A stretch of 64,000 bases of DNA from an uncultured Victivallales bacterium (lineage in GTDB: Bacteria > Verrucomicrobiota > Kiritimatiellia > UBA8416): contig CAZNWT010000001.1 of the NCBI GenBank assembly GCA_964576795.1, forward strand, positions 56,697-120,696, in the 5' to 3' direction. The position numbers and the translations under genes were made by a program. Below are positions 2,356-43,772 of this stretch, one piece after another. Positions within the stretch are counted from its first letter, which is position 1; the number at the start of each line of letters is the position of its first letter. The notes under the pieces were generated by a model. The model saw only the letters and a program-made list of their open reading frames with translations, had not been told where the DNA came from and searched no databases.

Positions 2356-2368
2356 AAGGAAAAAGATC

Positions 2369-3445: not shown

Positions 3446-3480
3446 GGAATGAAGGAATAGATAGGGACAAGATTAAGAAA
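3432..3480. repeat. Short direct repeat AGGGACAAGATTAAG (two copies, 30 nt apart) within a purine-rich run
   Basis: Copies at about 3432 and 3462; the first supplies the TAA stop of the upstream gene. Confidence 0.6.
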
Positions 3481-3493
3481 TAAGGAGTAGAGC

Positions 3494-4522: not shown

Positions 4523-4565
4523 GCCAGTCATTCTTAGCTGTTGGTTTCCGTGATGAGCCTTCTGA

Positions 4566-5228: not shown

Positions 5229-5241
5229 GTCTTGTGGCGCG

Positions 5242-5270
5242 ATGATGGCAATGCGGAAGGCTCGTGTCAA
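5242..5270 (-). promoter_or_regulatory. Sigma70-like promoter of the TetR gene
   Basis: TTGACA (5270-5265), 17-nt spacer, CATCAT (5247-5242). Confidence 0.55.
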
Positions 5271-5290
5271 GTTTTCCCAAAATGGAAATG

Positions 5291-5320
5291 GCAAACAATC
5301 TGAATACATCAGTTGTTTGC
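5291..5320. promoter_or_regulatory. Imperfect palindrome, candidate TetR operator
   Basis: GCAAACAA-T-CTGA-ATACA-TCAG-TTGTTTGC lies between the divergent tetR and sulfatase genes. Confidence 0.5.
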
Positions 5321-5498
5321 TCGTCAGCACTACGATTTCTTCCTGCTTCGATCGATAGCATGAAAACAATTCAAGAACGTCAAGGCGTTGCCGCTGGTCG
5401 AGCAGGCGGCAGGCAAAAGCGATCCGATAATGATTGAACATGGGCGCATCAATAGGGCACTTTTACAAACAGAAATAAACATAAGCAGGAGATTTTTC

Positions 5499-6953: not shown

Positions 6954-7272
6954 CAAACGGAAGACACATTCCCCCACGGGAGTGCGGTTCTAATTCTCAA
7001 CACATTCATTGTCAACCCATTACGTGATGCGGCTGCACTGTCAACGCCCGTCGCGTTCACAGTTGGCACAATGCAAAAACACCAGAACCGGTGGACGATT
7101 ACAGCGATACGACTGTCGTGTTTTTGAGATGCGACAGGTGTTTGTTTCGCAACGCTTTACGAAAAACGCACACACCTGCACATTTCCCCTCCACCATATG
7201 CATCGCACTTGCATCAGCCAGACGCATCGACTACGCTCATACAATTCAATATTCAGCAAGGAATCCGTACTC

Positions 7273-8301
7273 ATGAAGACGCCCGCCATCTTTCGGCTTT
7301 CCAAAGCCCTTCTCGCATACAAACAAAAGCGCGAGGTCGTGAAGGCAATGCCCCTTCGCCTCTGGGTCGAGACATCCACTATGTGCAATCTTGAATGTAT
7401 CATGTGCCCCAACAAAGATCTTCCGGATGATCAAGTCTCCGTTATGGATTTAGAGCTTTTTGAGAAAATTGTCGATGAAGCCAGCGGCTTTGCTCAGGAC
7501 ATCTACCTCCATCACCGCGGCGAGCCGTTAATCAACCCTCAACTCTTCAGCATGATTCGCTACGCCGAAGAGGCCGGACTCAGAACCCGGTTTCACACAA
7601 ACGGAACCATGCTGACACCCGCGCGCGCCACCAAACTCCTTGAGGCAGCTCCCAGCATGATCTCATTCTCATTCGACGGTTTTTCAAAGGAACCGTACGA
7701 ACGCATCCGCCAAGGCGCTTCTTTTGAAAAAACCCTCGAAAACATTCTTTTTCTGGCAAAACAGAAGCGCCTGAAAAAGCTCAAACACCCCTACATCGTT
7801 GTCGAGCGGATTAAATTTAAAAATCCCAACCTCGCAGACGACCCCCAAGTCGTTGCGGACATGACGAAGTTGCTACGCGATGCCGGCGTTGACGAAGTAA
7901 TTGAAAAAGACGAATACGATTGGGCAGGCACCGAAGTCCAACTCGAAAAAAGCGAGAACACAACTCCCGCACAAAACACCTGCTGCACGTTTCCCTGGTA
8001 CGCCATGGTTATCTGCGCCGACGGCACCGTCACCCCCTGCCCTCAGGACTTCATGGGAGAAATGGTAATGGGGAACGTGCGCAACACCTCCCTGCGAGAA
8101 ATTTGGAACAATGATGCCTACTGCAAGCTACGGCGTGGGTTCAGCGAGGGGAACACCCTCCCCGCTACCTGTGCGCACTGCGATCGTCTAACCCGTGACA
8201 CCATAGCAGGAGTACCCCTTCAGTACGCAAAAACATTCCTGATTGACCAATTTGCCGGATACGGCAAACTCCGCAAATTTTTTGGAACGGCCGAACGGTA
8301 G
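7273..8301 (+). CDS. Radical SAM protein with a C-terminal SPASM/Twitch domain
   Basis: CNLECIMC (CxxxCxxC), HHRGEPL, TNG, FSFDG, then CTFPW..ADGTVTPCPQD..GNV..LREIWN..CAHC. AAGGAA RBS before the ATG at 7273. Confidence 0.9.
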   Translation: MKTPAIFRLSKALLAYKQKREVVKAMPLRLWVETSTMCNLECIMCPNKDLPDDQVSVMDLELFEKIVDEASGFAQDIYLHHRGEPLINPQLFSMIRYAEEAGLRTRFHTNGTMLTPARATKLLEAAPSMISFSFDGFSKEPYERIRQGASFEKTLENILFLAKQKRLKKLKHPYIVVERIKFKNPNLADDPQVVADMTKLLRDAGVDEVIEKDEYDWAGTEVQLEKSENTTPAQNTCCTFPWYAMVICADGTVTPCPQDFMGEMVMGNVRNTSLREIWNNDAYCKLRRGFSEGNTLPATCAHCDRLTRDTIAGVPLQYAKTFLIDQFAGYGKLRKFFGTAER

Positions 8302-8307
8302 TAAATT

Positions 8308-9474
8308 ATGCGTATTCTACTTCTGGCACCCCACCCCTTCTTTCAGGAGCGCGGCACACCCATTGCTGTGGGGATGCTGGCTACGGCTCTCGCCCAACGT
8401 GGCGATGTTGTCGACATCCTCACATATCACGAAGGTGAGGATCGTGCCTTCGCAGACAACGTCACCATTCACCGCATCCCCCCTCCACGATTTGTCCATG
8501 GCATTCGACCAGGATTCAGCATCAAGAAGCTCATCTGCGACGCAGCCATGTATCCCAAAGCCGCCGCTATGGTCGCCAGCAACACCTACGACTGTATCCA
8601 CGCCGTTGAAGAATCCGTTTTCATGGCTCAAGCCATAGGCAAACGCCATGCCATCCCTTACATCTTCGACATGGACTCATCCATGCCGCAACAGATTGTC
8701 GATAAAATTTCCCTCGCCAAACCGCTTTTACCCCTCATGCGCAAAATCGAAGCCGCTGCCATCCACCACGCTGCAGCGGTGGTACCCATGTGCGATGCAC
8801 TCGCCGACACAGCTCGCTCTCTAGGGGCACGTCACGTTGAAGTTCTGCATGACGTTTCACTTCTGCCCGAAAACTACCAGCCCAATCCCAAGCAAGGATT
8901 CCGCAAGGCTCTCAACCTCAATGGCCCCACTCTGCTCTACCTGGGGAATCTGGAATCCTACCAAGGCATTGACCTCCTGCTCAGCAGCTTTGCACTTGCC
9001 GCCAACAGTGCACCCGAGGCCCACCTGGTCATCGCAGGGGGGCGCATCGATGATATTCAAACCTACACCACAAAAGCAGCAACCCTCGGCATCCCCAAAA
9101 AAATTCACTTTCTCGGTCCACGACCCATAAGTCACATGGCAGACCTTTTCCATGATGCCGACATCCTTGTCTCGCCCCGAACGCAAGGCAACAACACCCC
9201 CATGAAGATATACTCCTATCTCGATGCCGAACGCGCCATACTTGCAACCAACCTTCCAACCCACACTCAGGTGTTGACGCCCCATGTGGCCGCACTTGCA
9301 TCTCCAACAAAAGAGGCTATGGCTGATGGTATGCTAAAACTCCTACAAGACGACACTCTACGCGCCACCCTCGGGCAGCAAGCCAAACAACTCGCCCGCG
9401 AATGCTATAGCATCCCAGCCTTCCAAAATACCGTTAACCGACTCTACACGTTCATGGCAACGTTGGGTGCTTGA
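8308..9474 (+). CDS. Glycosyltransferase family 4 (GT-B, retaining)
   Basis: MRILLLAP start, YLGNLESYQGIDLL, PMKIYSYL motif; begins 6 nt after the radical SAM stop. Confidence 0.9.
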   Translation: MRILLLAPHPFFQERGTPIAVGMLATALAQRGDVVDILTYHEGEDRAFADNVTIHRIPPPRFVHGIRPGFSIKKLICDAAMYPKAAAMVASNTYDCIHAVEESVFMAQAIGKRHAIPYIFDMDSSMPQQIVDKISLAKPLLPLMRKIEAAAIHHAAAVVPMCDALADTARSLGARHVEVLHDVSLLPENYQPNPKQGFRKALNLNGPTLLYLGNLESYQGIDLLLSSFALAANSAPEAHLVIAGGRIDDIQTYTTKAATLGIPKKIHFLGPRPISHMADLFHDADILVSPRTQGNNTPMKIYSYLDAERAILATNLPTHTQVLTPHVAALASPTKEAMADGMLKLLQDDTLRATLGQQAKQLARECYSIPAFQNTVNRLYTFMATLGA

Positions 9475-9499
9475 TTTTCAGCCCATTCCCGCAGATAAT
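9471..9499 (+). promoter_or_regulatory. Sigma70-like promoter of the hybrid kinase
   Basis: TTGATT, 17-nt spacer, GATAAT; GAGGTG RBS before the ATG at 9526. Confidence 0.55.
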
Positions 9500-9525
9500 C
9501 AACGTTCTAACTTGAGGTGTTTTGT

Positions 9526-11859
9526 ATGAGTACTCTTCAGTCAACAATCCTTTGCATAATGACCGTCACTCTAATTGTGACCGCATTCTGGTCGTGGAGA
9601 GAGGGAAAGAAGAGACGCGTTGAGTTAGCTGCGATCGCAGGCGAACGCGACAGACTCAAGCGAACCGTCGACAGACTCAAGCGCGCCGTCGTGGAAGTAA
9701 AAAACGATCGCGACGCCGCAAGAGAAAGAGCGTCTTGGTTCAGCAAACTCTTCGATAGCGCTCGTGATATGGCGCTTGTATACAGCATTGCCGAAGACGA
9801 AACTCCTTTGCAGATTCTCGCCGTCAACGACTCCACTTGCGAAACGCTTGAATACCGCCGCGAAAAATTGATCGAAATGACGCCTCTGGAAATTGAGACC
9901 GTGCAGGAACCCCTGGTGCATCAACATCAGCACACGAATGTCGAACTCCTCACGCTCTCAAATACAGAAATACTGGCGAGCGAAGGCGTCTTTGTGTCTC
10001 GTGATATACAGAATCTAATCAAACACGTTATGGCTGGGGAAACCGTTGTCCGTGACAGCAGTCTTGTAACCCAATCGGGGCGACGCATTCCAGTTGAGAT
10101 CACGGCACACCGTTTTGGCGAAGACACCGAGCGGATGATTCTATACACCATTCGCGACCTCTCCGAACGCAATAAAGCGGCCCTTGAACTGCGAGCAACC
10201 GAACAACGGTTTAAGGACTTCTTTGCATTCTCTCCCATCGGGACGGCCTCGTACACAGCACAGCGTACACTCATCGACGCCAATCTAGCCTGCCTTCGCA
10301 TCTTCGGAGCTCCAGATCGCAATGAGTTTGGAAAGCTGGACGTGTTTGAAAATCCGTTCCTACCCGCCTCTGTCAAAGATGGCATCAATCGCGGCCAAAC
10401 CGTTAGATGCGAAGTCGTTTTTGATTTTGACGAATTACTTGACTCACGCTCCCTCGTTAGCAGCAGACGTGGAAAAGCATTTTTCGATATCCTGTTTAAC
10501 AACTTAGGCCGCGACCACGAGCACAACCCCCTTGGCTACCTCATACAAGTTCAGGACATCACCGAGTGCCGGGAAGCAGAAGCAGCACTTCAACTCCGTG
10601 AAGCACAGCTTCGTCAGGCTCAGAAAATGGAAGTGATCGGCACAATGGCGTGTGGCATCGCCCACGATTTTAATAATATTCTGACGCCCATTCTGGGGTA
10701 TTCAGACATTGGCATGGAACTCACGCCCCCCGGCGAGCGTATGCATGAATTCATGAAAGAAATCCAAAACGCAACCATGCGGGCAAAAGAACTCGTCCAC
10801 CAAATCCTTGTTTTCAGTCGACAGACCGAGGATGTCCAGCCCCTCATTCACCTCAATTCCATTATCAAAGAGGTTGCAAAACAGCAAGCAGCTGGCCTTT
10901 CAGAGAATATATCCGTGAAACACACCACTAGTGTAAAAGAAGACCTAGTGCTCGCAAACCCAACCCAAATCCATCAAGTCCTGACAAACTTCTGTACCAA
11001 TGCCGCATACGCCATGAAAAAGACTGGCGGCGAGCTCGATATACGTCTGACGCAATTCAACATGGGCTGGAGACATCGCCAGGAGTTCCCGCGACTCAAA
11101 AAGGGGAGTTATCTACGGCTCTCTGTTAAAGATACTGGAGGCGGTATCCCAGACGAAGTACGCGAACGGATCTTCGACCCCTTCTTCTCTACCAAGCCCA
11201 GCGGCGAAGGCACCGGCATGGGGCTCTCGGTGGTACACGAAATTGTCAGTGGTCTCGGTGGCGACATTGCCCTCGACACAAAGGAAGGTGTAGGATCCAC
11301 CTTCCACGTTGCGCTTCCGTTGGCAGATGCACTCCCCGTTGAAGAAGCAACGGTGTGGGAGGCCCCACCCTCAGGAAATGAACGCATTCTATTTGTCGAC
11401 GATGAACAGGGAATCGTCAAGATGGCAACCCATATGCTCACCTCATTGGGCTATGACCCTGTTGTAACCTCAAGTAGCGCCAAGGCTGTTGAGATCTTTC
11501 AAGAAAATCCGAAAAGCTTCGACATTCTGGTAACCGATCAGGTAATGCCAAATCTGACAGGATCCGAACTTGCCATACGCCTCCGCGAAATTCGCCCAGA
11601 CCTACCCGTCGTCATCTGCTCCGGTTTCAGCGGCAAACTCACCACAGAGAAGGTTGAAGAACTCGGCATTAACGAATTTCTCATCAAACCCATCGCAAGA
11701 CAGGAGCTCGGCGAAGCCATTCGTCGGGCACTGGGTCATGATGTTGTAATTCCAAACATACCTCTGGCAGAAGGGTCGTCACTTGAGAATGCGGAATCAG
11801 ATATAGAAACACCCCCCTCAATACCAGAAATCACCGAAACAAAAGCTGAGACCGAATAA
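9526..11859 (+). CDS. Hybrid sensor histidine kinase (TM, coiled coil, PAS, PAS, HisKA, HATPase, receiver)
   Basis: H-box GIAHDFNNIL, N-box QVLTNFCTNA, G boxes DTGGGI / FDPFFSTK / GTGMGLS, receiver motifs FVDDE, VTDQVMP and FLIKP. Confidence 0.93.
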   Translation: MSTLQSTILCIMTVTLIVTAFWSWREGKKRRVELAAIAGERDRLKRTVDRLKRAVVEVKNDRDAARERASWFSKLFDSARDMALVYSIAEDETPLQILAVNDSTCETLEYRREKLIEMTPLEIETVQEPLVHQHQHTNVELLTLSNTEILASEGVFVSRDIQNLIKHVMAGETVVRDSSLVTQSGRRIPVEITAHRFGEDTERMILYTIRDLSERNKAALELRATEQRFKDFFAFSPIGTASYTAQRTLIDANLACLRIFGAPDRNEFGKLDVFENPFLPASVKDGINRGQTVRCEVVFDFDELLDSRSLVSSRRGKAFFDILFNNLGRDHEHNPLGYLIQVQDITECREAEAALQLREAQLRQAQKMEVIGTMACGIAHDFNNILTPILGYSDIGMELTPPGERMHEFMKEIQNATMRAKELVHQILVFSRQTEDVQPLIHLNSIIKEVAKQQAAGLSENISVKHTTSVKEDLVLANPTQIHQVLTNFCTNAAYAMKKTGGELDIRLTQFNMGWRHRQEFPRLKKGSYLRLSVKDTGGGIPDEVRERIFDPFFSTKPSGEGTGMGLSVVHEIVSGLGGDIALDTKEGVGSTFHVALPLADALPVEEATVWEAPPSGNERILFVDDEQGIVKMATHMLTSLGYDPVVTSSSAKAVEIFQENPKSFDILVTDQVMPNLTGSELAIRLREIRPDLPVVICSGFSGKLTTEKVEELGINEFLIKPIARQELGEAIRRALGHDVVIPNIPLAEGSSLENAESDIETPPSIPEITETKAETE

Positions 11860-18489: not shown

Positions 18490-19803
18490 CTAAACAGATA
18501 AGCCAACCACAATCCGCCGCGCCAGCTCTGGAAGGTTTGGATCGCGCGCGCCCATAACAATGATGGCATCGCCTAGCTTGGCTTCAGCAGTCGCCACCGA
18601 AAGCGCTTCATCGTGCGAGGCCACACAGGAAGCATGAATGCCCTGCGCCACAAGGCGGTCCGCCAACACGTTTGCGTTGATACTACGATCCGCGGTACCA
18701 CCGGCATCAAATATAGGGAGCAGCAACAGCCGATCATCCGGGCCACAAAGCGCGGCGAAGGTGTCTGTCAACTCATCCAGCAAAACGCGCAGAGGGCCAA
18801 ACCCATGCGGACGCCAGATCACAATTCCGCGGCGAGCAAAGGGCACCACTGCATTCCAGGCGGCTGCGATCTTGGCTGGATTGTGACCGTAGTCATCCAA
18901 CACCGTAATGCCGCCAGTCTGCCCCACAACTTCGAGCCGACGATGAATACCCTTGAACGTGCGCAGCGCCTCGGCGCTGGTCTCAAGCGAGACTCCGAGA
19001 CAGCGACACAACATCGCCGCATGCAATGCATCCTCAACATTATGTCTCCCCGGCAAGGGCAGATCAAAGACGACACCTTCACAGACAAAATGGCTGGAGG
19101 ATGCCGTCACCGAGGGCTCAACGCTTTCCCAATAGTGCGCTGAATCAAGCGCACCAATGCACTGCCCCTGAACCTGATTCCGAAACTGCTCAAACAGCTC
19201 AATCGTTTCAGTCAGCTCGAAGTGATCCGCCGACATGTTGGTGATAACGGCAAACTCCGGTTGATAGTTCAGCAGCGAACGATCACTCTCGTCGGCCTCG
19301 ATCACCCACAGATCATCGCTCCCTTTCCGCGTATTCCCCACCCTGTCGTCAGCGCGCCAATTCGTGAGCGCGGCTCCATTCACAACCGAGGGGTTGTGAC
19401 CAGCTTGCTCAAGAATCCACCCGACCATTCCCGTCACGGTGCTCTTTCCTGACGTACCGGCAACCGCCACGCAGGTTTTTCCGTGCACAAGCTGCGCGAG
19501 CACTTCGGAACGATGAAGCACGGGCAAGCCTAACCTTTCCGCCGCAAGTACATCAGGATTATCAGCTTCAATCGCCGTACTGATAACGACGGCACCAGCC
19601 CCCGCCTCGACCCCTGAACCATCCTGCGGGAACAGATCAATGCCAGCGACCTCGAGCTGCTTCAGAATGGGCAGAGGATCACCTTGATCCTGAAAACGAT
19701 CCGATCCCGTCACACGCACGCCCTGAAAACAGACGGCTTGCGCAACGGCACTCATACCGACGCCCGCAACACCTACAAAATGATATTGAGAACACTCAAG
19801 CAC
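18490..19803 (-). CDS. MurC/Mpl-like ATP-dependent amino acid ligase
   Basis: HFVGVAGVGMSAVA, GSD, GTSGKSTVT, IEADESD, DDYGHNP. murC not asserted because of its atypical context. Confidence 0.8.
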   Translation of the reverse strand: MLECSQYHFVGVAGVGMSAVAQAVCFQGVRVTGSDRFQDQGDPLPILKQLEVAGIDLFPQDGSGVEAGAGAVVISTAIEADNPDVLAAERLGLPVLHRSEVLAQLVHGKTCVAVAGTSGKSTVTGMVGWILEQAGHNPSVVNGAALTNWRADDRVGNTRKGSDDLWVIEADESDRSLLNYQPEFAVITNMSADHFELTETIELFEQFRNQVQGQCIGALDSAHYWESVEPSVTASSSHFVCEGVVFDLPLPGRHNVEDALHAAMLCRCLGVSLETSAEALRTFKGIHRRLEVVGQTGGITVLDDYGHNPAKIAAAWNAVVPFARRGIVIWRPHGFGPLRVLLDELTDTFAALCGPDDRLLLLPIFDAGGTADRSINANVLADRLVAQGIHASCVASHDEALSVATAEAKLGDAIIVMGARDPNLPELARRIVVGLSV

Positions 19804-24950: not shown

Positions 24951-25577
24951 TCACTCCGCTGAGTGAAGCGCCGGCAGCTCCAAATCCTCGGGGCGATCAA
25001 CATCGCTTAGGACAGGAAGCTTTGCCACACACAATCCCTCTGCAGCCGCAGCCACTTCGGTGTCGTGGCAGACTCTGCTTTCACCCCATGCGATGCCAGT
25101 GAATAGAGCCGCACACGGCTGTTTGAGGCCAATGAGATAATAGCCGCCATCGGCCGCTGGACCCAACACCACATCGTGCGATGCAAGAGCGGCATTCGCT
25201 TGAGCAAGAATTGCCGGGCTAAGCTCAGGACAATCGGTTCCGATGATAAGAAAAGAAACGCCGGATTCACAATGCTGCTCGCAGGCGTGATGCAAGCGCT
25301 CCCCAAGATTGCCCTCGCATTGCAGTTCGAATGCGATGCCCCGCCCCAACCATGATTGCATGGATTTCGTCGTTGCACCTGTAAAGCAGACAGAGAGGTG
25401 AACATCTTGTTTCTGACAGAACTCACGCGCAACGGCAACCGTATGCTCCGCCATCTGTTTGTGTAATGCCGCCGCACCCTCGGCCCCCAAGGCGGGGATC
25501 AACCGCGTTTTAGATCTACCCGCTTCTGGCCAGCGCATAAACACCACAAGATGTACCTGTTGCGAAACGTTCATCAT
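24951..25577 (-). CDS. TIGR04282/DUF2064-type transferase (CofC-like nucleotidyltransferase fold; rSAM/selenodomain-associated transferase 1)
   Basis: PEAGRSKTRL, QCEGNLGERL, IGTDCP, LGPAADGGYYLIGL, DVDRPED. Confidence 0.88.
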   Translation of the reverse strand: MMNVSQQVHLVVFMRWPEAGRSKTRLIPALGAEGAAALHKQMAEHTVAVAREFCQKQDVHLSVCFTGATTKSMQSWLGRGIAFELQCEGNLGERLHHACEQHCESGVSFLIIGTDCPELSPAILAQANAALASHDVVLGPAADGGYYLIGLKQPCAALFTGIAWGESRVCHDTEVAAAAEGLCVAKLPVLSDVDRPEDLELPALHSAE

Positions 25578-25647
25578 CCTACTTTCGCGTGTTTCGTAGT
25601 TGAACTACGCTTTTCAGGATCCTGCGCAGAACCTCTTGCAAAACACC

Positions 25648-25714
25648 TGCGGGGCAAGGGCGCCCCACCTTCCATTTCTGTTTGTTTTTGGAGGTGGGAC
25701 GCCCTCGTCCTGCA
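25648..25714. repeat. Inverted REP-like dimer, family B
   Basis: TGCGGGGCAAGGGCGCCCCACCT..CC paired with GGAGGTGGGACGCCCTCGTCCTGCA; same family as 39017-39092. Confidence 0.7.
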
Positions 25715-25728
25715 CATCTGCCAGAGTT

Positions 25729-27759
25729 TTACAGCGACTTTCCATAGTAGCGTTCATACATCGCGTGCGTATCGACCTCGCCCCACAATCTCCTAAAAAG
25801 ATAGGTTCCGACAAGTCTAATGATAAAAACCGCACGAACAACCTTGTGCTTCTGCCACCCTCGCAAAGATACACGAGCCAAACCAAACAGATGCACCGTA
25901 CGCCCCACCATGAGCAACCGCAGACTAAGTTCAACATCTTCCATCAATGGAATAGCAGGAAAGAGATTGTGCTCCATGACGACCTGTCGTCGGAAAAACT
26001 GCACCTGATCCCCAAAAGATACCGACAAGCAGGTTGCCCTAATATCGTTCAGGACTTCAACAATGCGAATGCCACCATCACCCCCATCAAAGGAGCAACC
26101 CAGGCTGCCACCAACCACGCCGGGATTCGCTTGCAACATGGCCAGCATTCGGTCCCATGACTCTGGTGGAACAACGGTATCGGCATGGACAATCGCAACC
26201 ACATCCCCCGATGCTCGCTGTAAAGCCGCATAGATCTGCCCGCCGCGTCCAACATGCTCAAGTCCGGCAACCACCACCATTGCCCCCGCCTTTTCGGCCA
26301 ATGCCAGCGTATCATCACGGGAGCCTCCATCAGAAACGAGAACCTCAGTGACAAGAGGATTGGACAGTAAAATTTCGCAGCACGCTGAGATGCGCTGCGC
26401 TTCGTTGATGACGGGAACAAGCACCGAAAGGGTTTTTGCAGGTGTATTGGCAGATGCGTTTCTGAGTCGCCGAATGCCAACCGCCCCCTCCCACGCCAAC
26501 AGGCCCAAGACGGGTATCCACTCAATGGCAAAGGCCAATGACGAAATCTCCCAAGCGCCTGTGAGCGCAAACGTCCGACACACAGTGAAATAGGCCCCGA
26601 TAGTGAGTGTTGCCACCAACCAGCCCCATACGGGCAAAACAACGGCAAACGGCAAAATCCAGCTTAGGTACCAGTAGTGCACCGTGGGCGACAACAGCAG
26701 CAATGCGCCAAAAGCCAAGAGTATTCCCGGCAAGGGATCTTTGTTGCGACAGCGCATCCACAGCGGCATAAGGCGGATATAGGCAAAACTCAAAACCCCA
26801 AAAAACGCCACTTTTACGATGACAGTCGCCGCCGTCATGGATCCCAACACACCGCGCAGCACACCGTGAATGGGACCGTTGAATGCAAACTCCGAGCCAA
26901 ATGCCAATAGACAGTGAAAAAGTTGACGGGGATCCAGCAAAACAATCGGAAGATAGGGCACAACCGCTGCAGCAACAGAGATCCAAGCGTAGCGCCAATT
27001 CTCGCGATTGATAAGAAACGGAAGCGCGAACACGGCAACATACTTCACTTGAACCGCAAGGCCTGCCATCAGGAATGCCCATACCCACCGCTTTCGGGTA
27101 TGACAGAGAACCGCACCGGTGAGCAAGGCCGCCTGGATAGCATCAAAATGCCCTTCCCCCGCAAAACTAAAAAGGACTAGCGGATTAAATGCATAGAGGA
27201 AAGCCCAACGCAAGGGCAGATGCCGCGCCCGCAAGAGCTCAAACAGGAACAAAATGGCGACAAGATCAAAGAGGATGACAACCCACTTTATTGCCAAAGG
27301 ATGGTACCATATGCGAGAGATGCCACTGAACAGCCCAAGCATGAGCGGGGGATATGCCGCCGGCATATTGGGATGATTGACATAAGCATGAAAGGGATCA
27401 TCCTTCGCAAGGCCGGACAACAGCGGTGCATCCGGGGCATAGGCATAGGGGCTATAACCTGCTGCCAAAACACGCCCCTCCCACAAATAGCGGTTGATAT
27501 CATCCGAAGGTGGATACGGCAGCATTGCGAGCCGTGTCAATACCGAGACAACGAGGATGAAAAGGATTGTCTTTCGAGAAGACAGCGCGCGCGGAAACAG
27601 AAACAGCAACGCCACCGCAGCAACCCACAGGAAAGCGTACAACACTACAATACCAACAAGGTTGCTGACAGGGGTCATTCGCGAAACAATCGCACACGCC
27701 ACCAGCATGCCTATGGACAGCACGAGCAAGATCAGAATGCGCAGTCTATCAGCTCTCAT
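25729..27759 (-). CDS. Fusion of a GT-C fold (GT87/DUF2029-like) polytopic glycosyltransferase and a C-terminal TIGR04283-type GT2 domain
   Basis: N-part: SDDINRYLWEG, YSPY, YPP, FNPL, GHFD, many TMs. C-part: VLVPVINE, SDGGSRDDT, VHADT, FGDQ, PLMEDVE. Confidence 0.85.
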   Translation of the reverse strand: MRADRLRILILLVLSIGMLVACAIVSRMTPVSNLVGIVVLYAFLWVAAVALLFLFPRALSSRKTILFILVVSVLTRLAMLPYPPSDDINRYLWEGRVLAAGYSPYAYAPDAPLLSGLAKDDPFHAYVNHPNMPAAYPPLMLGLFSGISRIWYHPLAIKWVVILFDLVAILFLFELLRARHLPLRWAFLYAFNPLVLFSFAGEGHFDAIQAALLTGAVLCHTRKRWVWAFLMAGLAVQVKYVAVFALPFLINRENWRYAWISVAAAVVPYLPIVLLDPRQLFHCLLAFGSEFAFNGPIHGVLRGVLGSMTAATVIVKVAFFGVLSFAYIRLMPLWMRCRNKDPLPGILLAFGALLLLSPTVHYWYLSWILPFAVVLPVWGWLVATLTIGAYFTVCRTFALTGAWEISSLAFAIEWIPVLGLLAWEGAVGIRRLRNASANTPAKTLSVLVPVINEAQRISACCEILLSNPLVTEVLVSDGGSRDDTLALAEKAGAMVVVAGLEHVGRGGQIYAALQRASGDVVAIVHADTVVPPESWDRMLAMLQANPGVVGGSLGCSFDGGDGGIRIVEVLNDIRATCLSVSFGDQVQFFRRQVVMEHNLFPAIPLMEDVELSLRLLMVGRTVHLFGLARVSLRGWQKHKVVRAVFIIRLVGTYLFRRLWGEVDTHAMYERYYGKSL

Positions 27760-29258
27760 CTTCTTGCAGGAATAAATGTTTGGCAGACTGTGAGCATACC
27801 AATGAAAAGAAAACCGGCGGCATAGATCGCCAAGAAAGGACTTACGATCAGTTTTCCCGCTAGGAGATATTGAACCAAAGTCCAGCAGCTGTAGAGGCCA
27901 AGTGCAATTTCAACCACAGAGACCCACGGCAATCGAATCGCATATTGCTTAACGATACGATCCCCCCGCTTTGGCGTCCTTACAAACTCGCTCTCTTTTC
28001 TGAATATGGCTTCGATAATCGCACGAGTGTTAGAAACTGCCATTCCGATACCGACGACCATCAAGAACGGAAGCAGAAGCACGCGCCGTTTCCACTTTGT
28101 ATGGATGGCACGTTGACTCACCATATAGAGTGTGCTGGGTGCCACCACCGAAAAGCACAGCGGCAGCGAAAGCAGACAGAAGAGAACACTGGCAGAACGA
28201 AATTCGGGCATCATATGCAGAACAGGAAGGGCCAAGAGCACAAGGGTTAGCATCATCGGATGCACCAGGTACCCCCCCATATGAAATAGCGCCTGCAGCT
28301 TCTTAAAAGGGGATACCTTGGCTGCCATCAGTCTGGGAAATAGTTTGAGCAACGTCTGCACAGATCCCTTAGCCCAGCGGAACTGTTGCCCACGAAAAGC
28401 ATTGATATCTTCAGGGAGTTCAGCGGGCACAACGACATGGGGCAGGTAGAGCGTCTTCCAACCCGCAAATTGAACACGGTAAGAGAGATCCAGATCCTCC
28501 GTAAGCGTTTCCCACTGCCACCCCCCCCCCTCAACAATAGCAGACTTTCGCCAGAGGCCAGCTGTACCATTGAAGTTCATAAAAAGGTCATTCCAAGATC
28601 TGGCGATCTGCTCGATAATAAAGTGCCCATCAATCCCCACCGCCTGCGCACGTGTCAAAAGGGAGGCTCTACGGTTTAAATGACCCCAGCGTGTCTGGAC
28701 AAATCCAAGTGTCGCGTCAGATGCAAAATAATGGGCGGTATCCAATAGATAGTTCTCCTCGGGCACAAAATCAGCGTCAAAGACCGCAATCACATCACCC
28801 CTACACGCCTCCAAGCCCTTTTGAAGGGCTCCAGCCTTGAACCCAATCCGATCCACCCGATGCAGCACCTTGATGTCATGCCCCTGCTCCAGCAACTCTG
28901 CAGCAACCCGCTCGACCTCCTTCAGGGTTTCATCCGTTGAATCGTCCAACACCTGAATTTCATGCCGCCCTTTAGGATAGCGCATGTTGCAAGCCGCCCG
29001 CATAACGCGCTCCGACACGTTCCGTTCGTTGAAAATGGCGATCTGCGTGGTGACAACAGGAAGCGCATCTCCCATTACCAGCACATCATCAGCGGTGATC
29101 CTACCGTCATGGTGAGCCTGAACCTCCCGACGACGACGCATAAAGAGGATCAGCATGACATAACAATTCAAGCCGTATAACAGCAATCCCACGGTGGCAA
29201 TGCCGTAAAACGTGAGAACCATAGGCTTCAGTGCCATTTCCATCATATTGAGTTCCAT
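27756..29258 (-). CDS. Processive GT2, cellulose synthase-like (CslA-type) membrane glycosyltransferase
   Basis: VLDDS, GFKAGAL, FDADF, TEDLDLS and QFRWAKG (D,D,D,QxxRW), flanked by TM helices. Confidence 0.92.
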   Translation of the reverse strand: MELNMMEMALKPMVLTFYGIATVGLLLYGLNCYVMLILFMRRRREVQAHHDGRITADDVLVMGDALPVVTTQIAIFNERNVSERVMRAACNMRYPKGRHEIQVLDDSTDETLKEVERVAAELLEQGHDIKVLHRVDRIGFKAGALQKGLEACRGDVIAVFDADFVPEENYLLDTAHYFASDATLGFVQTRWGHLNRRASLLTRAQAVGIDGHFIIEQIARSWNDLFMNFNGTAGLWRKSAIVEGGGWQWETLTEDLDLSYRVQFAGWKTLYLPHVVVPAELPEDINAFRGQQFRWAKGSVQTLLKLFPRLMAAKVSPFKKLQALFHMGGYLVHPMMLTLVLLALPVLHMMPEFRSASVLFCLLSLPLCFSVVAPSTLYMVSQRAIHTKWKRRVLLLPFLMVVGIGMAVSNTRAIIEAIFRKESEFVRTPKRGDRIVKQYAIRLPWVSVVEIALGLYSCWTLVQYLLAGKLIVSPFLAIYAAGFLFIGMLTVCQTFIPARR

Positions 29259-29302
29259 ATCATGAATTGGAGTGCTTAAAGAATCAGAGGGCGGAAACTT
29301 TA

Positions 29303-30088
29303 TCAGTTCTGGGCATTCAAGAGCCAGTCATAACCCAGTGTTTTAATCGTAGGCGATGCGTTCGCTTCTGACAGAAACGAGACTGTCTCATCGGATGCGT
29401 AGAGCCGAATCAAGTCAACCACGGAGCGCTTTCCCCCATCAGTGAAGTCATCACCGAACCATTTGAAGATCTTGCTAACGCGCAAGATATACCTTTTGCG
29501 CCCCAGCAAGCCACTTGAGACTTCCGTCTGAATGTGCTTAGGCGACGCCATGAATAGCCGCGTGGCACGATCAAGTTGAGACCCAGCACTCTCCCCACAA
29601 TAGGCCCAGGGCTGCAAATCGGGGCACCCAATGCTGGCACACACAATCGCAAAGTGGATGCGTGGCTCACGAAACACCTTTCGTAGAATCTCATGCTCGA
29701 TGGCATCCAAATTGTAAAGCGTATCCCCAACGCGCCAGCGCTTCTGCTTCCACGGCGCATCAATATCCCGAATGCTCTTAAGCGGCATATTGTCCACAAT
29801 CAACTTCACCGTGAAGGCATTATACGCATTGATCCAGAATGCGAGCTGGTGGTCACGCGACATCCCCGCAGGAGCGGCTTCAGACAGTTTCTCCAAATAG
29901 TCATCAAGAGCCGCTGGCGCATTTTTGATCGCTTCATAGTCCACAAGCCCCTTGCTTACATGTGCTTTCAGAAGCGCATCCCAACCATCGTGGAAACCAC
30001 CCGATCCGGATTCACCCTCTTCGCCGATCGCAGTGCCGACAAATGACAATAGGCCCGCAGCAACCATCATGCTCCAAATCTGTTTCAT
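29303..30088 (-). CDS. Exported DUF547 family protein
   Basis: Signal peptide, LAFWINAYNA, IEHEILR, EPRIHFAIVCASIGCP, YDWLLN; GAGGA RBS before the ATG at 30088. Confidence 0.88.
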   Translation of the reverse strand: MKQIWSMMVAAGLLSFVGTAIGEEGESGSGGFHDGWDALLKAHVSKGLVDYEAIKNAPAALDDYLEKLSEAAPAGMSRDHQLAFWINAYNAFTVKLIVDNMPLKSIRDIDAPWKQKRWRVGDTLYNLDAIEHEILRKVFREPRIHFAIVCASIGCPDLQPWAYCGESAGSQLDRATRLFMASPKHIQTEVSSGLLGRKRYILRVSKIFKWFGDDFTDGGKRSVVDLIRLYASDETVSFLSEANASPTIKTLGYDWLLNAQN

Positions 30089-30160
30089 ACCTGATCCTCT
30101 TCTTCGTAGATCGGACATCTTGTCCAATCGAACCCTTGGCAGACGGACAAAATGTCCGTC

Positions 30161-32632
30161 CTACTTCAAGTCTTGCGATATTTCTGGATGCCGTTTGACT
30201 TCATCATCAAGGCGTTCGCGAAGCTTTTGTTTTGGAAGACCCGCCGACCAGCCGCGAGCCAACGGAATATACGCCTTCTTGTAAACCACGTTATCAGGAT
30301 CCGATTGCCCCACAGAACCAAACGTCAAAACCTGCATAGGGCAATTCACGACGCAAGCACTGCAACGCACACATTCAACATCGTTCATAGGAACCCCACG
30401 ACTGGCATACCCCATAACATCAATACCCATATGGCACACTTTCGTGCAGATATTGCACGAAATGCACCGCTTTTTGTTTGCCATGATGCGATAGCGCGAG
30501 AATCGAGAATAGATGTGCATTAACGCCGCAAGCGGGCAGCCATACCGACACCAGATGCGGCCACCATAAAAGAAATAGACGCCAAGCCCGAGGACTCCAG
30601 CAAACACAACATCAATCACCAACTTGTAACTATACCATAGCGAACTGGCCACGACCGGTATCGCACAATGGGGATCCACCTTGTGACATAGCTTGTAAGG
30701 CATATATAGCAAGCCGCAGCCAATGGCAGCCCATAAAACCACTTGTCCAATATTTTCCATTCGTTTGGCAAGCGGTCCGTGTGGCGATAGCGTACGATAC
30801 TCATCACCCAGCGTCTCAGCCATCGCCCCACAGGAACAGATCCAGCCGCAATACGCGCCCTTGCCCCAGAAATAGACCAGCAAAAACAGAATACCAAAGG
30901 TCTGCACGAAGGGAAACCACGTCCAAAAGGCACTATTGCCGAACTCGTTGATGTTTAGCGGCCAAAACAGAATGAATGCAAATGAGCTCCATTTACCCGA
31001 TGGAAAGAGCTGCTCACGCAATCCGTCAGACAGCGCTCCAGCAATGAAACGGTCATACAGGAAAAACGGGATCACAAAAAGAAAGAGCGCTTGTATAACA
31101 ATCAGCGTCATCGTCTGTGTAATGATGTACGGTGTTGGTGTACGCTGCATACGGTAAATACCAAAAATCAAGATCGTAAGCGTATAGAACAGGGAGTAAT
31201 AATACGTGGGTGCCTCAACCCAAGCTGCATCCTGCATGAGTTGGCTCTGCATGTAGACCTTGAAGAACGTAATCCCGACGCCAATGAAGTAGCCATACTT
31301 GATCGTCTTCCAGATGGAGCCAAAATAACGTTCTCGCTCCCTAGCCATATCCCCCAGCATCGCGCCACCCGAAACGAGGAACACTACCGATCCTAGCCAA
31401 CCCAACAGAAAATTCAGAGAACCATACCAGGTTTGCCCCGCAAGCGACCAAGTCAAGCCCGCCCGCCAAGGCGCGGTGAGATAAGCCCATATCGCTGAAA
31501 TGGGATTCTCGGCACCAGCAAAGACATTCACGGCTCGTCCGGACTTCCCAAAGTAGAGCATCGTAAAGAAACTCAGTAGCGCGATCAGGCCAACCCACCA
31601 GATGCGACTCCGTTCACCCTCCATTGCAATGCGGGAACGCTTGAAAAATGCCACCGGAATCTCGGAGCCAATCAAAGCATACACCACATCATTAGGGAGG
31701 GTCTGTTCGCCTTCGGTGGTGGCAAGCACGATCTCCGTTTCCCGAATCTCCTTTACCGTACTTTTAAAGAACGGGTGAATCCGACCCTTCCTCACCGCTT
31801 CGGTAAATGCTGCGAAATTTTGTTCTTTCGGGCGAGAAAACGCAGGCTTGCGATAGGAGAGCGTCACTTGATTGCCGGCATCCGCCAGTGCCACTGCAGC
31901 CTCAAGCGCACTATCCCCACCGCCCACAACCAAAATATTCTGATCCTGATGTTCCCCCGGATCAACCAATCGCGTGAAGACTTTTGGGAAGTCCTCCCCC
32001 GGCACATTCAATCGCCGCGCATTGCCACTCTTTCCAATCGCAACAATCACTCGTAGCGCAATCGTTTCCCCATCCGCAGTCGTCTTCACGGCAAAAGCCC
32101 CACTGCGACCCGATATGTGCTTAACCGTCTCCCCTTCGAGCATTGGGATGTCATGCCCCTGAATATCCTGCTTCAACTCCTCGAGAAGTGTCTCTTTTGA
32201 GCCGTCATTAAAGACAAGAGCAGACTGCATAGGAGGATCTACCGGCGTCACATAGATGGGCTTTCCCTTTGGAAAATTCTGGATGGTGTTAAACGGCTGT
32301 GCAGCCTCAATCAGGAGCACGTGATACCCCAACGCTTGCGCACACAACGCTGCGGCCATTCCTGCCGGGCCCGCACCGATAATCACAAGATCATAGACAC
32401 CCTCCTGGCGACGCTTGCTCTCATCACGAAATTTCGCATCGGCATGTATCGCCTCTATCACGCCATAACCCGACTCGGCTGCGAGCTTGATCAACGGCAC
32501 CCCGGTTAGGTCACCCACACAGTAGATGCCCGGCACAGACGAGGCGTACCCCGATAGCTCCGGATACCGATCCACAGTACCCGTAGGATTTCCCTTCTGA
32601 AGCCACGGAAAATAGAAAGAAGGAATTTTCAT
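30161..32632 (-). CDS. FAD/NAD(P)-dependent oxidoreductase (TrxR-like, permuted) fused to a NapH/RdxA-like membrane polyferredoxin
   Basis: N-terminal VPGIYCVGD, GAGPAG, GGGDSA, then about 9-10 TM segments, CGWICSCG, CRYGCP, and two CxxCxxCxxxC 4Fe-4S motifs. Confidence 0.85.
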   Translation of the reverse strand: MKIPSFYFPWLQKGNPTGTVDRYPELSGYASSVPGIYCVGDLTGVPLIKLAAESGYGVIEAIHADAKFRDESKRRQEGVYDLVIIGAGPAGMAAALCAQALGYHVLLIEAAQPFNTIQNFPKGKPIYVTPVDPPMQSALVFNDGSKETLLEELKQDIQGHDIPMLEGETVKHISGRSGAFAVKTTADGETIALRVIVAIGKSGNARRLNVPGEDFPKVFTRLVDPGEHQDQNILVVGGGDSALEAAVALADAGNQVTLSYRKPAFSRPKEQNFAAFTEAVRKGRIHPFFKSTVKEIRETEIVLATTEGEQTLPNDVVYALIGSEIPVAFFKRSRIAMEGERSRIWWVGLIALLSFFTMLYFGKSGRAVNVFAGAENPISAIWAYLTAPWRAGLTWSLAGQTWYGSLNFLLGWLGSVVFLVSGGAMLGDMARERERYFGSIWKTIKYGYFIGVGITFFKVYMQSQLMQDAAWVEAPTYYYSLFYTLTILIFGIYRMQRTPTPYIITQTMTLIVIQALFLFVIPFFLYDRFIAGALSDGLREQLFPSGKWSSFAFILFWPLNINEFGNSAFWTWFPFVQTFGILFLLVYFWGKGAYCGWICSCGAMAETLGDEYRTLSPHGPLAKRMENIGQVVLWAAIGCGLLYMPYKLCHKVDPHCAIPVVASSLWYSYKLVIDVVFAGVLGLGVYFFYGGRIWCRYGCPLAALMHIYSRFSRYRIMANKKRCISCNICTKVCHMGIDVMGYASRGVPMNDVECVRCSACVVNCPMQVLTFGSVGQSDPDNVVYKKAYIPLARGWSAGLPKQKLRERLDDEVKRHPEISQDLK

Positions 32633-32831: not shown

Positions 32832-33080
32832 ATGACAAGACAAGATATCGTAAATCAACTACGCGAAACCATGCGGACATCCTCACCAGACCCCATCGAT
32901 TGGGACATCGTCACAGAAGAAACTACCATTGGAACTCTGGGGTTTGATTCACTCTCGATTCTGGACTTGATTTATGACGTACAGCAGGCTTTCGGTATTG
33001 ATTTCGAAGCCGAGGAACTGGTCAACATCAATACTGTAGGTGAACTTGCCGACTTCCTTGAGGAAACGCTCAAGGCATGA
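32832..33080 (+). CDS. Acyl carrier protein
   Basis: LGFDSLSILDL phosphopantetheine motif, acidic 82-aa protein. Confidence 0.9.
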   Translation: MTRQDIVNQLRETMRTSSPDPIDWDIVTEETTIGTLGFDSLSILDLIYDVQQAFGIDFEAEELVNINTVGELADFLEETLKA

Positions 33081-33952
33081 AGAAACTGCGGCATCTCGTT
33101 GAGTACGCTGCCGTCCGCACGTTTCTAATGCTTGTCGATGCGCTCTCCCTTCGGGCTGCCGAACTGTTGGCCTCCGGAATTGCGGATATCTGGTTTTCAG
33201 CAGCGTCTCGACGGCGCGGTATCACCTGCGACAACGTCAGACGCAGCGGCATCGCAACTGATGAGATGAAGGTGCGGCGTATTGCCAAGGCGTCCTTTAG
33301 ACACTTCGCTTGCCTGATCATCGACTCTCTCAAATCCGACCGCTACTTGACGCCAGAAACGTGGCAAGAGCACATAAGTCTGGATGTGCCGCCAGAGACC
33401 CTGGCGCTCCTTAAACAACCCGATCAGGGGCTGATTCTCATTTCCGGACACCTTGGGAACTGGGAAATAGCAGCCCAGGCTCTCTCTTTTATCAAACCCG
33501 TCGTTGGTATCACACGGGACATGAACAACCCCTACACGAATGCCCTCATGAAGAAACGCAAACCCCGCAATGCGTTCACGCTTACGCCCAAACACAGTGC
33601 CAATATGGGGCGGCTCCTCAAGACGCTGAGGTCCGGAAATATTCTAGCGCTTCTGACCGACCAGCACGCACAACACGGCATGATGGTTGATTTCTTTGGC
33701 ATCTCCGCCAGCACACACACTTCACATGCCATGTTGCATTTGATTACAAAAACGCCCATGTGTTTTGGGTACTGCGTGAAGACAGGCCCAATGCAATTCA
33801 TGCTAAAGGCATCCCTCCCCATCACCGTCCCCCGAACAGGCAAACGCGACGAAGACGTAAGAGGCATTCTTGAACAACTCTCTCGCGAACTCGAAACAGC
33901 CATCCGGGCCTACCCCGAACAATACCTCTGGGCTCACCGACGCTGGCGGTAA
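33077..33952 (+). CDS. Lipid A late acyltransferase, LpxL/HtrB family
   Basis: GHLGNWE, LTDQH, VDFFG, YPEQYLWAHRRWR; ATGA overlap with the ACP gene. Confidence 0.9.
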   Translation: MKKLRHLVEYAAVRTFLMLVDALSLRAAELLASGIADIWFSAASRRRGITCDNVRRSGIATDEMKVRRIAKASFRHFACLIIDSLKSDRYLTPETWQEHISLDVPPETLALLKQPDQGLILISGHLGNWEIAAQALSFIKPVVGITRDMNNPYTNALMKKRKPRNAFTLTPKHSANMGRLLKTLRSGNILALLTDQHAQHGMMVDFFGISASTHTSHAMLHLITKTPMCFGYCVKTGPMQFMLKASLPITVPRTGKRDEDVRGILEQLSRELETAIRAYPEQYLWAHRRWR

Positions 33953-43570: not shown

Positions 43571-43595
43571 GCGGCTCCCCGGAAATAAAAAAAAT

Positions 43596-43772
43596 ACCCC
43601 ACCATGCCGAACAGACGTAATCTCTGGACCTCGTAAACGAGGTGGGTGCTCTAGTCAGCGCATCAGGTCTCCCCTCCGAAGAGGGTTACACCGTCGTCGC
43701 TGCATTCAAGCTCCCTGATCATATAACCTGGGTCAGAGATATTTGCCTGCAAACCGAACAAGGCAGGGTACT
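43596..43772 (-). ncRNA. ssrS: 6S RNA (boundaries approximate)
   Basis: Minus strand forms a rod with paired ends (CCCTGCC..TTCGG with TTCGGCATGGTGGG; CTCTG with CAGAG), with GGGAGCTTGAA and CACCCACC motifs and a U-rich 3' end. Lies between pheT and the 5-FCL/rny block, a typical 6S location. Confidence 0.82.

Follow-up and report, generated by a model that had tools for sequence, protein, structure and literature searches.

ArsS is reported to act together with ArsM in the opening steps of arsenosugar synthesis (PMC8552651) and to convert dimethylarsenite, DMAs(III), and S-adenosylmethionine (SAM) into 5'-deoxy-5'-dimethylarsinoyladenosine (DDMAA) (PMC13598754). The ArsS/ArsM arsenosugar pathway of Synechocystis sp. 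PCC 6803, with the TIGR04282 and TIGR04283 companion families, is the described system with which the locus analyzed here is best compared, a set of five genes in a 64-kb stretch of contig CAZNWT010000001.1 from an uncultured Victivallales bacterium (hereafter the window, meaning the whole stretch). We know of no description of the arsenosugar steps that follow DDMAA, and the name "arsenosugar biosynthesis glycosyltransferase", which is attached to both companion families, was given only by association with ArsS. A second point of comparison is provided by the mercury-methylation genes hgcAB, whose loci have acr3, arsC, arsM, and arsR as neighbors (McDaniel et al. 2020, PMC7438021).

Five co-oriented open reading frames (ORFs) were confirmed on the minus strand between positions 24951 and 32632 (coordinates are positions in the window unless another locus is named). 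In the order of transcription, they encode a membrane flavin/Fe-S oxidoreductase, an exported DUF547 protein, a CesA/PgaC-like membrane GT2, a GT-C–GT2 fusion protein, and a TIGR04282 protein, with spacings of 33 bp, 44 bp, a 4-bp overlap, and 151 bp, respectively. A first-pass annotation, made from the sequence alone, had listed the same five co-oriented genes, and our ORF and profile analyses recovered all of them with their family types, apart from the TIGR04283 assignment. Domain calls were made from Pfam and NCBIfam profile scores compared with curated cutoffs, from PDB sequence matches, by inspection of motifs and hydropathy, and from AlphaFold2 (AF2) models followed by fold searches.

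The locus shares TIGR04282 with the Synechocystis system, and the corresponding sets of its relatives hold ArsS (TIGR04167) and ArsM-like methyltransferases. It differs in that neither ArsS nor ArsM was found in the 81 kb searched, and in that its TIGR04283-like domain scores below the family threshold and is fused to a GT-C domain; moreover, arsenosugar synthesis as described includes neither the CesA-like GT2 nor the GT-C, DUF547, or the NapH-like flavoprotein. The presence of HgcA beside ArsS (in one relative, L083) and beside the five-gene set in the closest relatives of the window fits the hgcAB–ars association, although ArsS, DUF547, and glycosyltransferases are not among the neighbors listed in PMC7438021, and no HgcA was found in the window. 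We propose, with a probability of about 0.6, that the window carries a reduced copy of an ArsS-associated ("arsenosugar-type") envelope glycoconjugate locus, and not a separate invention.

Association of the Gene Set with ArsS

A search with the fusion protein returned 278 homologs, of which the named ones came from Desulfobacterales, Planctomycetota, and other lineages. Scanning one genome per GTDB species gave 80 loci, taken with 10-kb flanks. The genome counts below cover 50 loci whose fusion is full length: 48 of the scanned loci plus L083 and L088, two close relatives of the window. Contigs from Joint Genome Institute (JGI) metagenomes added 43 full-length-fusion loci, for a combined total of 93. 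The metagenome scan had been directed at the window's own clade; the closest fusion that it returned was 48% identical, and it served as an independent replicate of the co-occurrence pattern. All counts are of loci and not of independent evolutionary events, and a few loci sit in both collections.

In several loci, a radical SAM protein of 341 aa whose C-terminal tail is rich in Cys, encoded beside DUF547, was identified as ArsS (TIGR04167 437 bits, cutoff 300), and the ArsS proteins of the relatives' loci scored 379–437 bits with this model. A methyltransferase of 386–426 aa, whose gene comes immediately after that of the fusion, is ArsM-like, being a member of the arsenite methyltransferase group. 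Among the genome loci, 10 of the 21 with DUF547 or the oxidoreductase had ArsS within 10 kb, compared with 0 of the 29 with neither (Fisher p = 3e-5). The metagenome loci gave 7/17 versus 0/26 (p = 6e-4), and the two collections combined gave 17/38 versus 0/55 (p = 1.7e-8). Despite the counting by locus, the direction of this co-occurrence is unambiguous. ArsS/ArsM-type genes were found in L013, L028, L031, L034, L035, L039, L040, L045, L067, L083, L102, L106, L108, L119, L120, L124, L128, and L135. In the Opitutales-type order, ArsS, DUF547, oxidoreductase, CesA-like GT2, fusion, and ArsM follow one another, with TIGR04282 on the opposite strand, and in the metagenome locus L102 the order on a single strand is ArsS, TIGR04282, oxidoreductase, DUF547, CesA-like GT2, and fusion.

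The part of the set that tracks ArsS is the redox pair (DUF547 and the oxidoreductase), not the glycan pair (the CesA-like GT2 and the fusion). The first-pass annotation had read the TIGR04282/TIGR04283 pair as recruited into a pathway without its usual radical SAM partner, with a dedicated redox module supplying reductant. This is not borne out by the above counts or by the nearest relatives of the window: the redox pair is tied most closely to ArsS and is no substitute for it.

The Post-Fusion Slot in the Window and Its Closest Relatives

Three contigs (L083, L088, and P0006) encode fusions that are 63–67% identical to that of the window. L083 (GCA_003353835.1, PIVV01000044) has its upstream flank in common with the window (XseAB, two ABC ATPases, an LpxL-like protein, and an acyl carrier protein, ACP). 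The same first four genes of the set are followed there by ArsS (379 bits) and HgcA (NF040863 409 bits, cutoff 275; NVWCAAGK motif). In L088, the oxidoreductase, DUF547, CesA-like, and fusion genes precede an HgcA-like gene, a gene for a 94-aa two-cluster ferredoxin, and TIGR04282, and the small downstream ORF (hyp176) that flanks the window locus is also present. In the P0006 contig, for which only a gene map was used, the set ends after the fusion. Metalloid-alkylating genes thus occupy the post-fusion slot in two of the four members of this clade, and the slot is empty in the window. HgcA lies within 12074–14118 of L083 and within 11116–12494 of L088, the counterparts of positions 25578–25728 of the window. 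The HgcA slot is also the slot of the ArsM-like methyltransferase in the Opitutales loci, and in L083 it adjoins ArsS. These arrangements may hint at a role of HgcAB in an arsenic-related pathway.

In the window, the fusion and TIGR04282 genes are separated by a minus-strand spacer of 151 bp (25578–25728) that contains a GC-rich hairpin followed by a T-run (25668–25649); tblastn detected no remnant of ArsS or HgcA in it. The search was extended to the window plus 10 kb on each side (contig positions 48017–128987, that is, 81 kb of the 135,646-bp contig, ENA ERZ27316330 k141_91600), and the earlier statement that no ArsS or ArsM lies adjacent to the set holds across all of it, neither gene of the ArsS/ArsM system being found. 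The sole radical SAM (CxxxCxxC) gene of the window encodes a SPASM enzyme (7009–8301) beside a sulfatase. It is part of a plus-strand row (5388–9474) of a sulfatase, a radical SAM protein of the anaerobic sulfatase-maturase type, and a GT4 glycosyltransferase, which is unrelated to the five-gene set.

The five proteins of the window are 61–84% identical to those of close relatives, with no frameshifts and with the family-invariant residues kept, which argues that they are functional. Since the slot that is empty here holds ArsS or hgcA in relatives, the window would represent a reduced version of the locus and not a lineage that never had the link.

Conservation of the Set across Phyla

The CesA-like gene was found within 10 kb of the fusion gene in 35 of the 50 genome loci, directly upstream of it in the gene maps, and directly upstream in 29 of the 43 metagenome loci; the two genes are adjacent in ~65 of the 93 loci, across many phyla. 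In P0110 and P0111 (1140–1172 aa) and in L013 (1159 aa), the CesA-like GT2 and the fusion form a single protein. Adjacency in most loci and fusion in these three argue for a strong functional link between the two. This pair is the constant core of the set and occurs alone in Nitrosomonas (as in the cultured Nitrosomonas sp. Nm51, L016) and in many Desulfobacterales. Unsupervised clustering of all ORFs gave DUF547 (19 loci), the oxidoreductase (16), and TIGR04282 (16) as the next commonest neighbors.

All five genes occur together in 11 loci outside the window, six from genomes (L028, L031, L034, L036, L067, and L088) and five from metagenomes (L102, L120, L124, L125, and L127), and further loci hold a part of the set cut by contig ends. 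Copies of the full set come from Verrucomicrobiota, Desulfobacterales, Gemmatimonadota, Fibrobacterota, and Chitinispirillaceae. Incomplete sets, with one gene missing or with truncation at the end of the contig, were found in Fibrobacterota, Gemmatimonadota, and Chitinispirillaceae, as well as in cultured Thalassobacterium maritimum SDUM461003 (L044), where the order is oxidoreductase, DUF547, CesA-like GT2, and fusion. With the same gene set in so many phyla, the arrangement in the window is not due to chance. A lack of conservation of the five genes as a set, which the first-pass annotation had named as grounds for abandoning its reading, was therefore not what these 11 complete loci showed.

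From the sequence comparisons, the locus appears as two modules. One, the predicted glycan module, is formed by the CesA/PgaC-like GT2 and the GT-C–GT2 fusion and occurs alone in many bacteria; the other, formed by the NapH-like oxidoreductase, DUF547, and TIGR04282, travels with ArsS, with ArsM-like methyltransferases and, in the clade of the window, with HgcA.

Variants of the locus were also observed. In metagenome-assembled genomes of Desulfamplus (L055, L058, L060, and L061, ~2000–10800), a split form comprises a lone GT-C, a porin-like protein, a CCG/Fe-S protein fused to DedA/TVP38 (NF045663-like), a CesA-like GT2, two multi-rhodanese proteins, and a separate TIGR04283-like GT2. NF045521 ("rhoda_near_glyco") also matches rhodanese proteins of L006, L039, L046, and L072. 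In L024, L075, L111, L114, and L146, a MerA/Lpd-like flavoprotein, TVP38/DedA, and DUF547 accompany a TIGR04283-like GT2 or the fusion and replace the NapH-like oxidoreductase. The locus-associated rhodanese, TVP38, and MerA-like proteins gave no tblastn match in the window or its 10-kb extensions.

The Glycan Pair

The CesA/PgaC-like GT2 (29258–27756, minus strand; 500 aa) matched Glyco_tranf_2_3 with 84 bits and contains motifs of the D, DxD, ED, QxxRW type (DDSTD at 105, DAD at 161, TED at 253, and QQFRW at 291), with two N-terminal and about four C-terminal membrane helices by hydropathy. Its family matches fall below the equivalog cutoffs (CelA 122 bits, cutoff 699; PgaC 112 bits, cutoff 422). 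The PgaC model is the best full-length family match (residues 63–424 against profile positions 41–397 of 407), and among PDB sequences the best match is BcsA (E 4e-24). By its motifs and helices, the protein has the features of processive GT2 synthases of the BcsA/PgaC type, and processivity is predicted. It shares with BcsA, PgaC, and NodC the D, DxD, ED, and QxxRW motifs, the flanking helices, and a near end-to-end alignment with PgaC, but differs from them in scores far under the cutoffs, so that it belongs to neither the BcsA nor the PgaC equivalog, in the lack of a PilZ domain, and in its partners: BcsB, PgaD, and PgaB were not found in the locus, and the steady partner here is the GT-C–GT2 fusion.

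The gene for this fusion (27759–25729, minus strand; 676 aa) overlaps the stop codon of the CesA-like gene by 4 bp with its start codon. A GT87/MptA_B-like GT-C region (residues ~1–435) is followed by a TIGR04283-like GT-A domain (~440–676; Glycos_transf_2 63 bits). The GT-C part is of the GT87/MptA_B type, with GT87 above the gathering threshold (36.5 bits, cutoff 25), a precomputed PF26314 match, and at least ~11 membrane helices. In an alignment of 64 homologs, D87, R90, Y91, W93, and E94 of the first loop, which would lie on the extracytoplasmic side, are invariant, S85 and D86 are near-invariant, and the FGDQ and PLMED motifs are conserved. The AF2 model (predicted local distance difference test score, pLDDT, 93.2) places a helical membrane domain before, and the GT-A domain after, residue ~433. 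When the whole fusion was used for a fold search, matches to the GT-A domain prevailed, and the GT-C part received no structural placement.

The nearest solved folds of the GT-A domain are GpgS and PcManGT, and ArnC matches by sequence; its relatives by sequence include the polyprenyl-phosphate enzymes ArnC, AglJ, and PpgS. GpgS is a soluble-acceptor enzyme that uses 3-phosphoglycerate and, as it is the nearest solved fold, a small phospho-acid acceptor is a live alternative to a lipid carrier. The fusion resembles the pairs formed by a polyprenyl-phosphate-sugar synthase and a GT-C (mycobacterial Ppm1 with the GT87 enzymes MptA, MptB, or PimE; ArnC with ArnT), in that a GT-A domain related to ArnC/AglJ/PpgS accompanies a GT-C with several membrane passes and acidic residues in its first loop, which matches GT87 and MptA_B_family. 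It differs from these pairs in that both activities are predicted on one polypeptide and that the GT-A domain is equally close to GpgS, so that a lipid carrier may or may not be used.

The TIGR04282 Protein and Its TIGR04283-Like Partner

The TIGR04282/DUF2064 protein (25577–24951, minus strand; 208 aa) belongs to TIGR04282 (213.3 bits, cutoff 134), with residues 10–199 covering profile positions 1–189 of 189; DUF2064 matched with 118.8 bits. It has a CofC/MobA-like nucleotidyltransferase fold (CofC 53 bits, below the cutoff; PDB 3CGX, E 1e-24), and its ortholog in L088 is 67% identical.

The GT-A domain of the fusion scored 135.3 bits with TIGR04283, below the curated cutoff of 182, and is thus not a member of this family. 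Ten more TIGR04283-like domains from other loci were scored for comparison. Those fused or adjacent to a GT-C, or located in loci without a GT-C (L075 and L077), reached 143–182 bits, whereas 217–276 bits were obtained for proteins fused to TIGR04282 (L003 and L067), adjoining it (L060 and L080), or alone (L078). Both kinds occur within the single loci L003, L060, and L067 with a mutual identity of only 24–37%, so that the GT-C-linked domain and the true TIGR04283 are paralogs with separate roles. Of the TIGR04282/TIGR04283 pair proposed in the first-pass annotation, TIGR04282 stands and TIGR04283 does not: judged by profile scores, the window holds TIGR04282 and a TIGR04283-like GT-C-linked paralog, and no canonical pair.

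The Redox Pair

The membrane oxidoreductase (32632–30161, minus strand; 823 aa) matched Pyr_redox_3 (121 bits), Pyr_redox_2 (98 bits), Fer4_5, and Fer4_9, and is 79% and 67% identical to its orthologs in L083 and L088, respectively. Its N-terminal part is a YpdA/TrxR-like flavoprotein domain for flavin adenine dinucleotide (FAD) and NAD(P)H with two GxGxxG sites. The middle part has about six hydrophobic helices with NapH/Fer4_5-type CX3C/CX3CP motifs (CGWICSC and CRYGCP), and two CxxCxxCxxxC [4Fe-4S] motifs form a 2x[4Fe-4S] ferredoxin domain at the C-terminus. The protein has no signal peptide, and motif inspection revealed no CxxC redox disulfide in the flavoprotein part. It scored below all curated NCBIfam cutoffs (YpdA 141 bits, cutoff 340; NapH, TIGR02163, 45.5 bits, cutoff 213, residues 582–771). 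The membrane-helix CX3C/CX3CP motifs followed by two [4Fe-4S] motifs are shared with the NapH/NosR/MauN polyferredoxins, and the two GxGxxG sites with the YpdA/TrxR flavoproteins, but here both parts are fused in one protein, the CxxC disulfide is lacking, and the scores are below the cutoffs. By analogy, the oxidoreductase probably works like NapH, with which it shares motifs, without being a member of NapH/MauN (TIGR02163). It would face the cytoplasm and link NAD(P)H to either the quinone pool or a thiol or metalloid substrate.

A PGIYCVGD motif was observed at residues 33–41 of the oxidoreductase, ahead of the first GxGxxG. Such a motif is normally found near the C-terminal end of the FAD domain in pyridine-nucleotide disulfide oxidoreductases, and its early position suggests that the domain is circularly permuted or that an additional partial domain is present.

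The exported DUF547 protein (29303–30127, minus strand) is a clear member of its family (PF04784 94.8 bits, gathering cutoff 27). According to an independent gene call, its likely start is Met14 (position 30088), which gives a protein of 261 aa, and the first ~22 residues of this form resemble a Sec signal (MKQIWSMMVAAGLLSFVGTAIG/EE). A C-x4-C-P motif and His, Arg, and Asn residues are invariant among 40 aligned homologs. The AF2 model (pLDDT 90.5) matched no fold in the PDB (best E 0.18, template modeling score below 0.2). The invariant residues suggest that DUF547 is an enzyme, with a fold as yet unsolved.

Genomic Surroundings

The rest of the window resembles an ordinary chromosome, with genes for RNase Y, PheST, InfC, ThrS, RarA, XseAB, a Mur ligase, FloA/NfeD, and 6S RNA, and only transport, sugar-oxidoreductase, and secretion genes were found in the 10 kb past either end. 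Judged by RNase Y, FloA, YmdB, an LpxL-family gene, a sulfatase with its maturase, and a secretin, the bacterium would be Gram-negative and may belong to the PVC group. Two plus-strand genes are divergent from the five-gene set and encode an ACP (32832–33080; PP-binding match) and an LpxL-family acyltransferase (33077–33952; Lip_A_acyltrans and LpxL-family matches). The position of this pair is kept in the close relative L083 only (87% and 75% identity, respectively), and neither in L088 nor in other phyla. The pair was therefore dropped as core members of the set, and we consider the two proteins, weakly, as possible accessories.

Promoter and terminator scans of the locus performed no better than scans of shuffled sequence. 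Elsewhere in the window, 6S RNA (Rfam RF00013, 60.2 bits) is encoded at 43592–43772 on the minus strand, upstream of the genes for a RarA-like ATPase and a 5-formyltetrahydrofolate cyclo-ligase. A Mur-ligase-family protein (18490–19803, minus strand; MurC model 280 bits, cutoff 335) is encoded ~5 kb from the set, and a homolog lies directly downstream of the fusion gene in four Nitrosomonas loci (L016, L020, L021, and L049), which may be a coincidence. Over almost all of the 64 kb, GC skew is negative and AT skew positive whatever the gene strand, and the signs flip only near 60–64 kb.

Proposed Pathway and Alternative Explanations

The glycosylation steps suggested by the first-pass annotation, that is, CofC-like activation, loading of a lipid carrier, and periplasmic transfer by the GT-C, are plausible and fit the domain families. 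From these families we infer the following substrates, topology, and order of steps, together with a possible arsenic content of the product. The TIGR04282 protein would convert a sugar-phosphate or acid-phosphate into an activated nucleotide derivative. A carrier would then be loaded by the GT-A domain of the fusion in the cytoplasm; this carrier may be polyprenyl phosphate, as in enzymes of the ArnC/DPMS type, or a small phospho-acid acceptor, as in GpgS. The GT-C would transfer the unit on the periplasmic face to a chain made and exported by the CesA-like synthase. Finally, the oxidoreductase would couple NAD(P)H or the quinone pool to thiol or metalloid redox chemistry involving the periplasmic DUF547 protein with its C-x4-C motif. 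The alkylating step for the window locus would be encoded elsewhere in the genome or would be absent.

Several observations weigh against a reduced ArsS-associated locus and in part favor the reading of the first-pass annotation, a self-contained pathway for an envelope glycoconjugate that supplies its own reductant, has borrowed a TIGR04282-type enzyme, and is free of radical SAM or arsenic chemistry. ArsS, ArsM, and HgcA were not found by tblastn in the 81 kb of the contig covered, and the window lies among housekeeping genes with no ars island. When the ArsS of the closest relative was compared with a set of 5.8 billion proteins, the matches leveled off at 55–61% identity, none lay on a contig of 135,646 bp, the length of the window's contig, and the two best came from other samples. 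Three other complete sets of five or four genes on long contigs (L042, L125, and L127) have no ArsS or ArsM within 10 kb, so that an ArsS-independent mode is possible. The CesA-like and fusion genes are widespread as a pair with no metalloid genes nearby, as in Nitrosomonas, and the glycan itself thus need not contain arsenic. Two further points concern the proposed chemistry: the acceptor of GpgS, the nearest solved fold of the GT-A domain, is soluble and no lipid carrier, and the literature holds no experimental study of any component of the set. An ArsS-free pathway is nonetheless rather unlikely in our view, as ArsS was seen only where DUF547 or the oxidoreductase is also encoded, the empty slot of the window is filled by ArsS or hgcA in its two closest syntenic relatives, and the TIGR04282 protein of the window scores above the threshold of a family named by NCBI for its association with ArsS. 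Moreover, absence from one contig is no guide to the rest of the genome.

The nature of the acceptor could also be different. If the CesA-like GT2 were a lipid glycosyltransferase of the diacylglycerol- or ceramide-glucosyltransferase type, with the product acylated by the ACP and LpxL-like proteins, the acceptor would change and the link to ArsS would stay. A Glyco_transf_21 match (ceramide glucosyltransferase family, 34.5 bits), a D, DxD, QxxRW signature common to lipid glycosyltransferases, the lack of PilZ and of a BcsB- or PgaD-like partner, the divergent ACP and LpxL-family genes in the window and L083, and a fatty-acid hydroxylase gene upstream in the P0006 contig are all in line with such a glycolipid. 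We nevertheless consider it improbable, because the ACP/LpxL pair is not kept with the set outside these two close relatives, and the processive synthases PgaC and BcsA are the best full-length family match and the best PDB sequence match of the GT2, respectively. The empty 151-bp slot with its terminator-like hairpin, where relatives carry ArsS or hgcA, might also be what is left in a decaying, functionless remnant after loss of these genes. This is very hard to reconcile with five full-length ORFs that keep every family-invariant residue at 61–84% identity and without frameshifts, and with a TIGR04282 protein that aligns end to end with its model, and we give it hardly any weight. A reduced but working copy of the ArsS-associated locus is the explanation that we prefer.

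Significance

Full-text searches of the literature found no paper on TIGR04282/TIGR04283, on bacterial DUF547, or on the five-gene combination, in agreement with the earlier description of the pathway as undescribed, and the preprint of Haft and Gwadz on selenoproteins and HgcAB has no mention of the genes of the set. The finding is best filed as follows: the ArsS-associated neighborhood, as computationally defined, is known, and its extended architecture (CesA-like GT2, GT-C fusion, DUF547, and NapH-like flavoprotein), here without alkylating genes, is new. For the window alone, the message is more modest, namely a reduced member of this family and no separate invention.

A bolder interpretation, which we put forward as speculative and quite unlikely to hold in full, is that anaerobes possess an organo-metalloid glycoconjugate pathway whose downstream half, so far unrecognized, is encoded by the set. 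TIGR04282 would activate the ArsS product, a 5-deoxy-5-dimethylarsinoyl-ribosyl unit, and the TIGR04283-like domain would load it. After its passage across the membrane, the GT-C would attach the unit to a secreted glycan that the CesA-like GT2 synthesizes, while DUF547 and the NapH-like flavoprotein would control arsenic/thiol redox. As ArsM and HgcAB take the same slot in different lineages, they would be interchangeable methyl donors, and the copy in the window would be served in trans or idle. If true, this would suggest that the native role of HgcAB is related to arsenic.

More generally, in many anaerobic and marine lineages, genes of the TIGR04282/TIGR04283 type belong to a larger conserved set. 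This set, whose product may contain arsenic, is a concrete candidate for the steps after the ArsS product, and hence for the fate of ArsS products, in non-cyanobacterial bacteria. DUF547 gains a first functional context, and the presence of hgcA in the same slot of close relatives offers a lead on the native function of the mercury-methylation genes.

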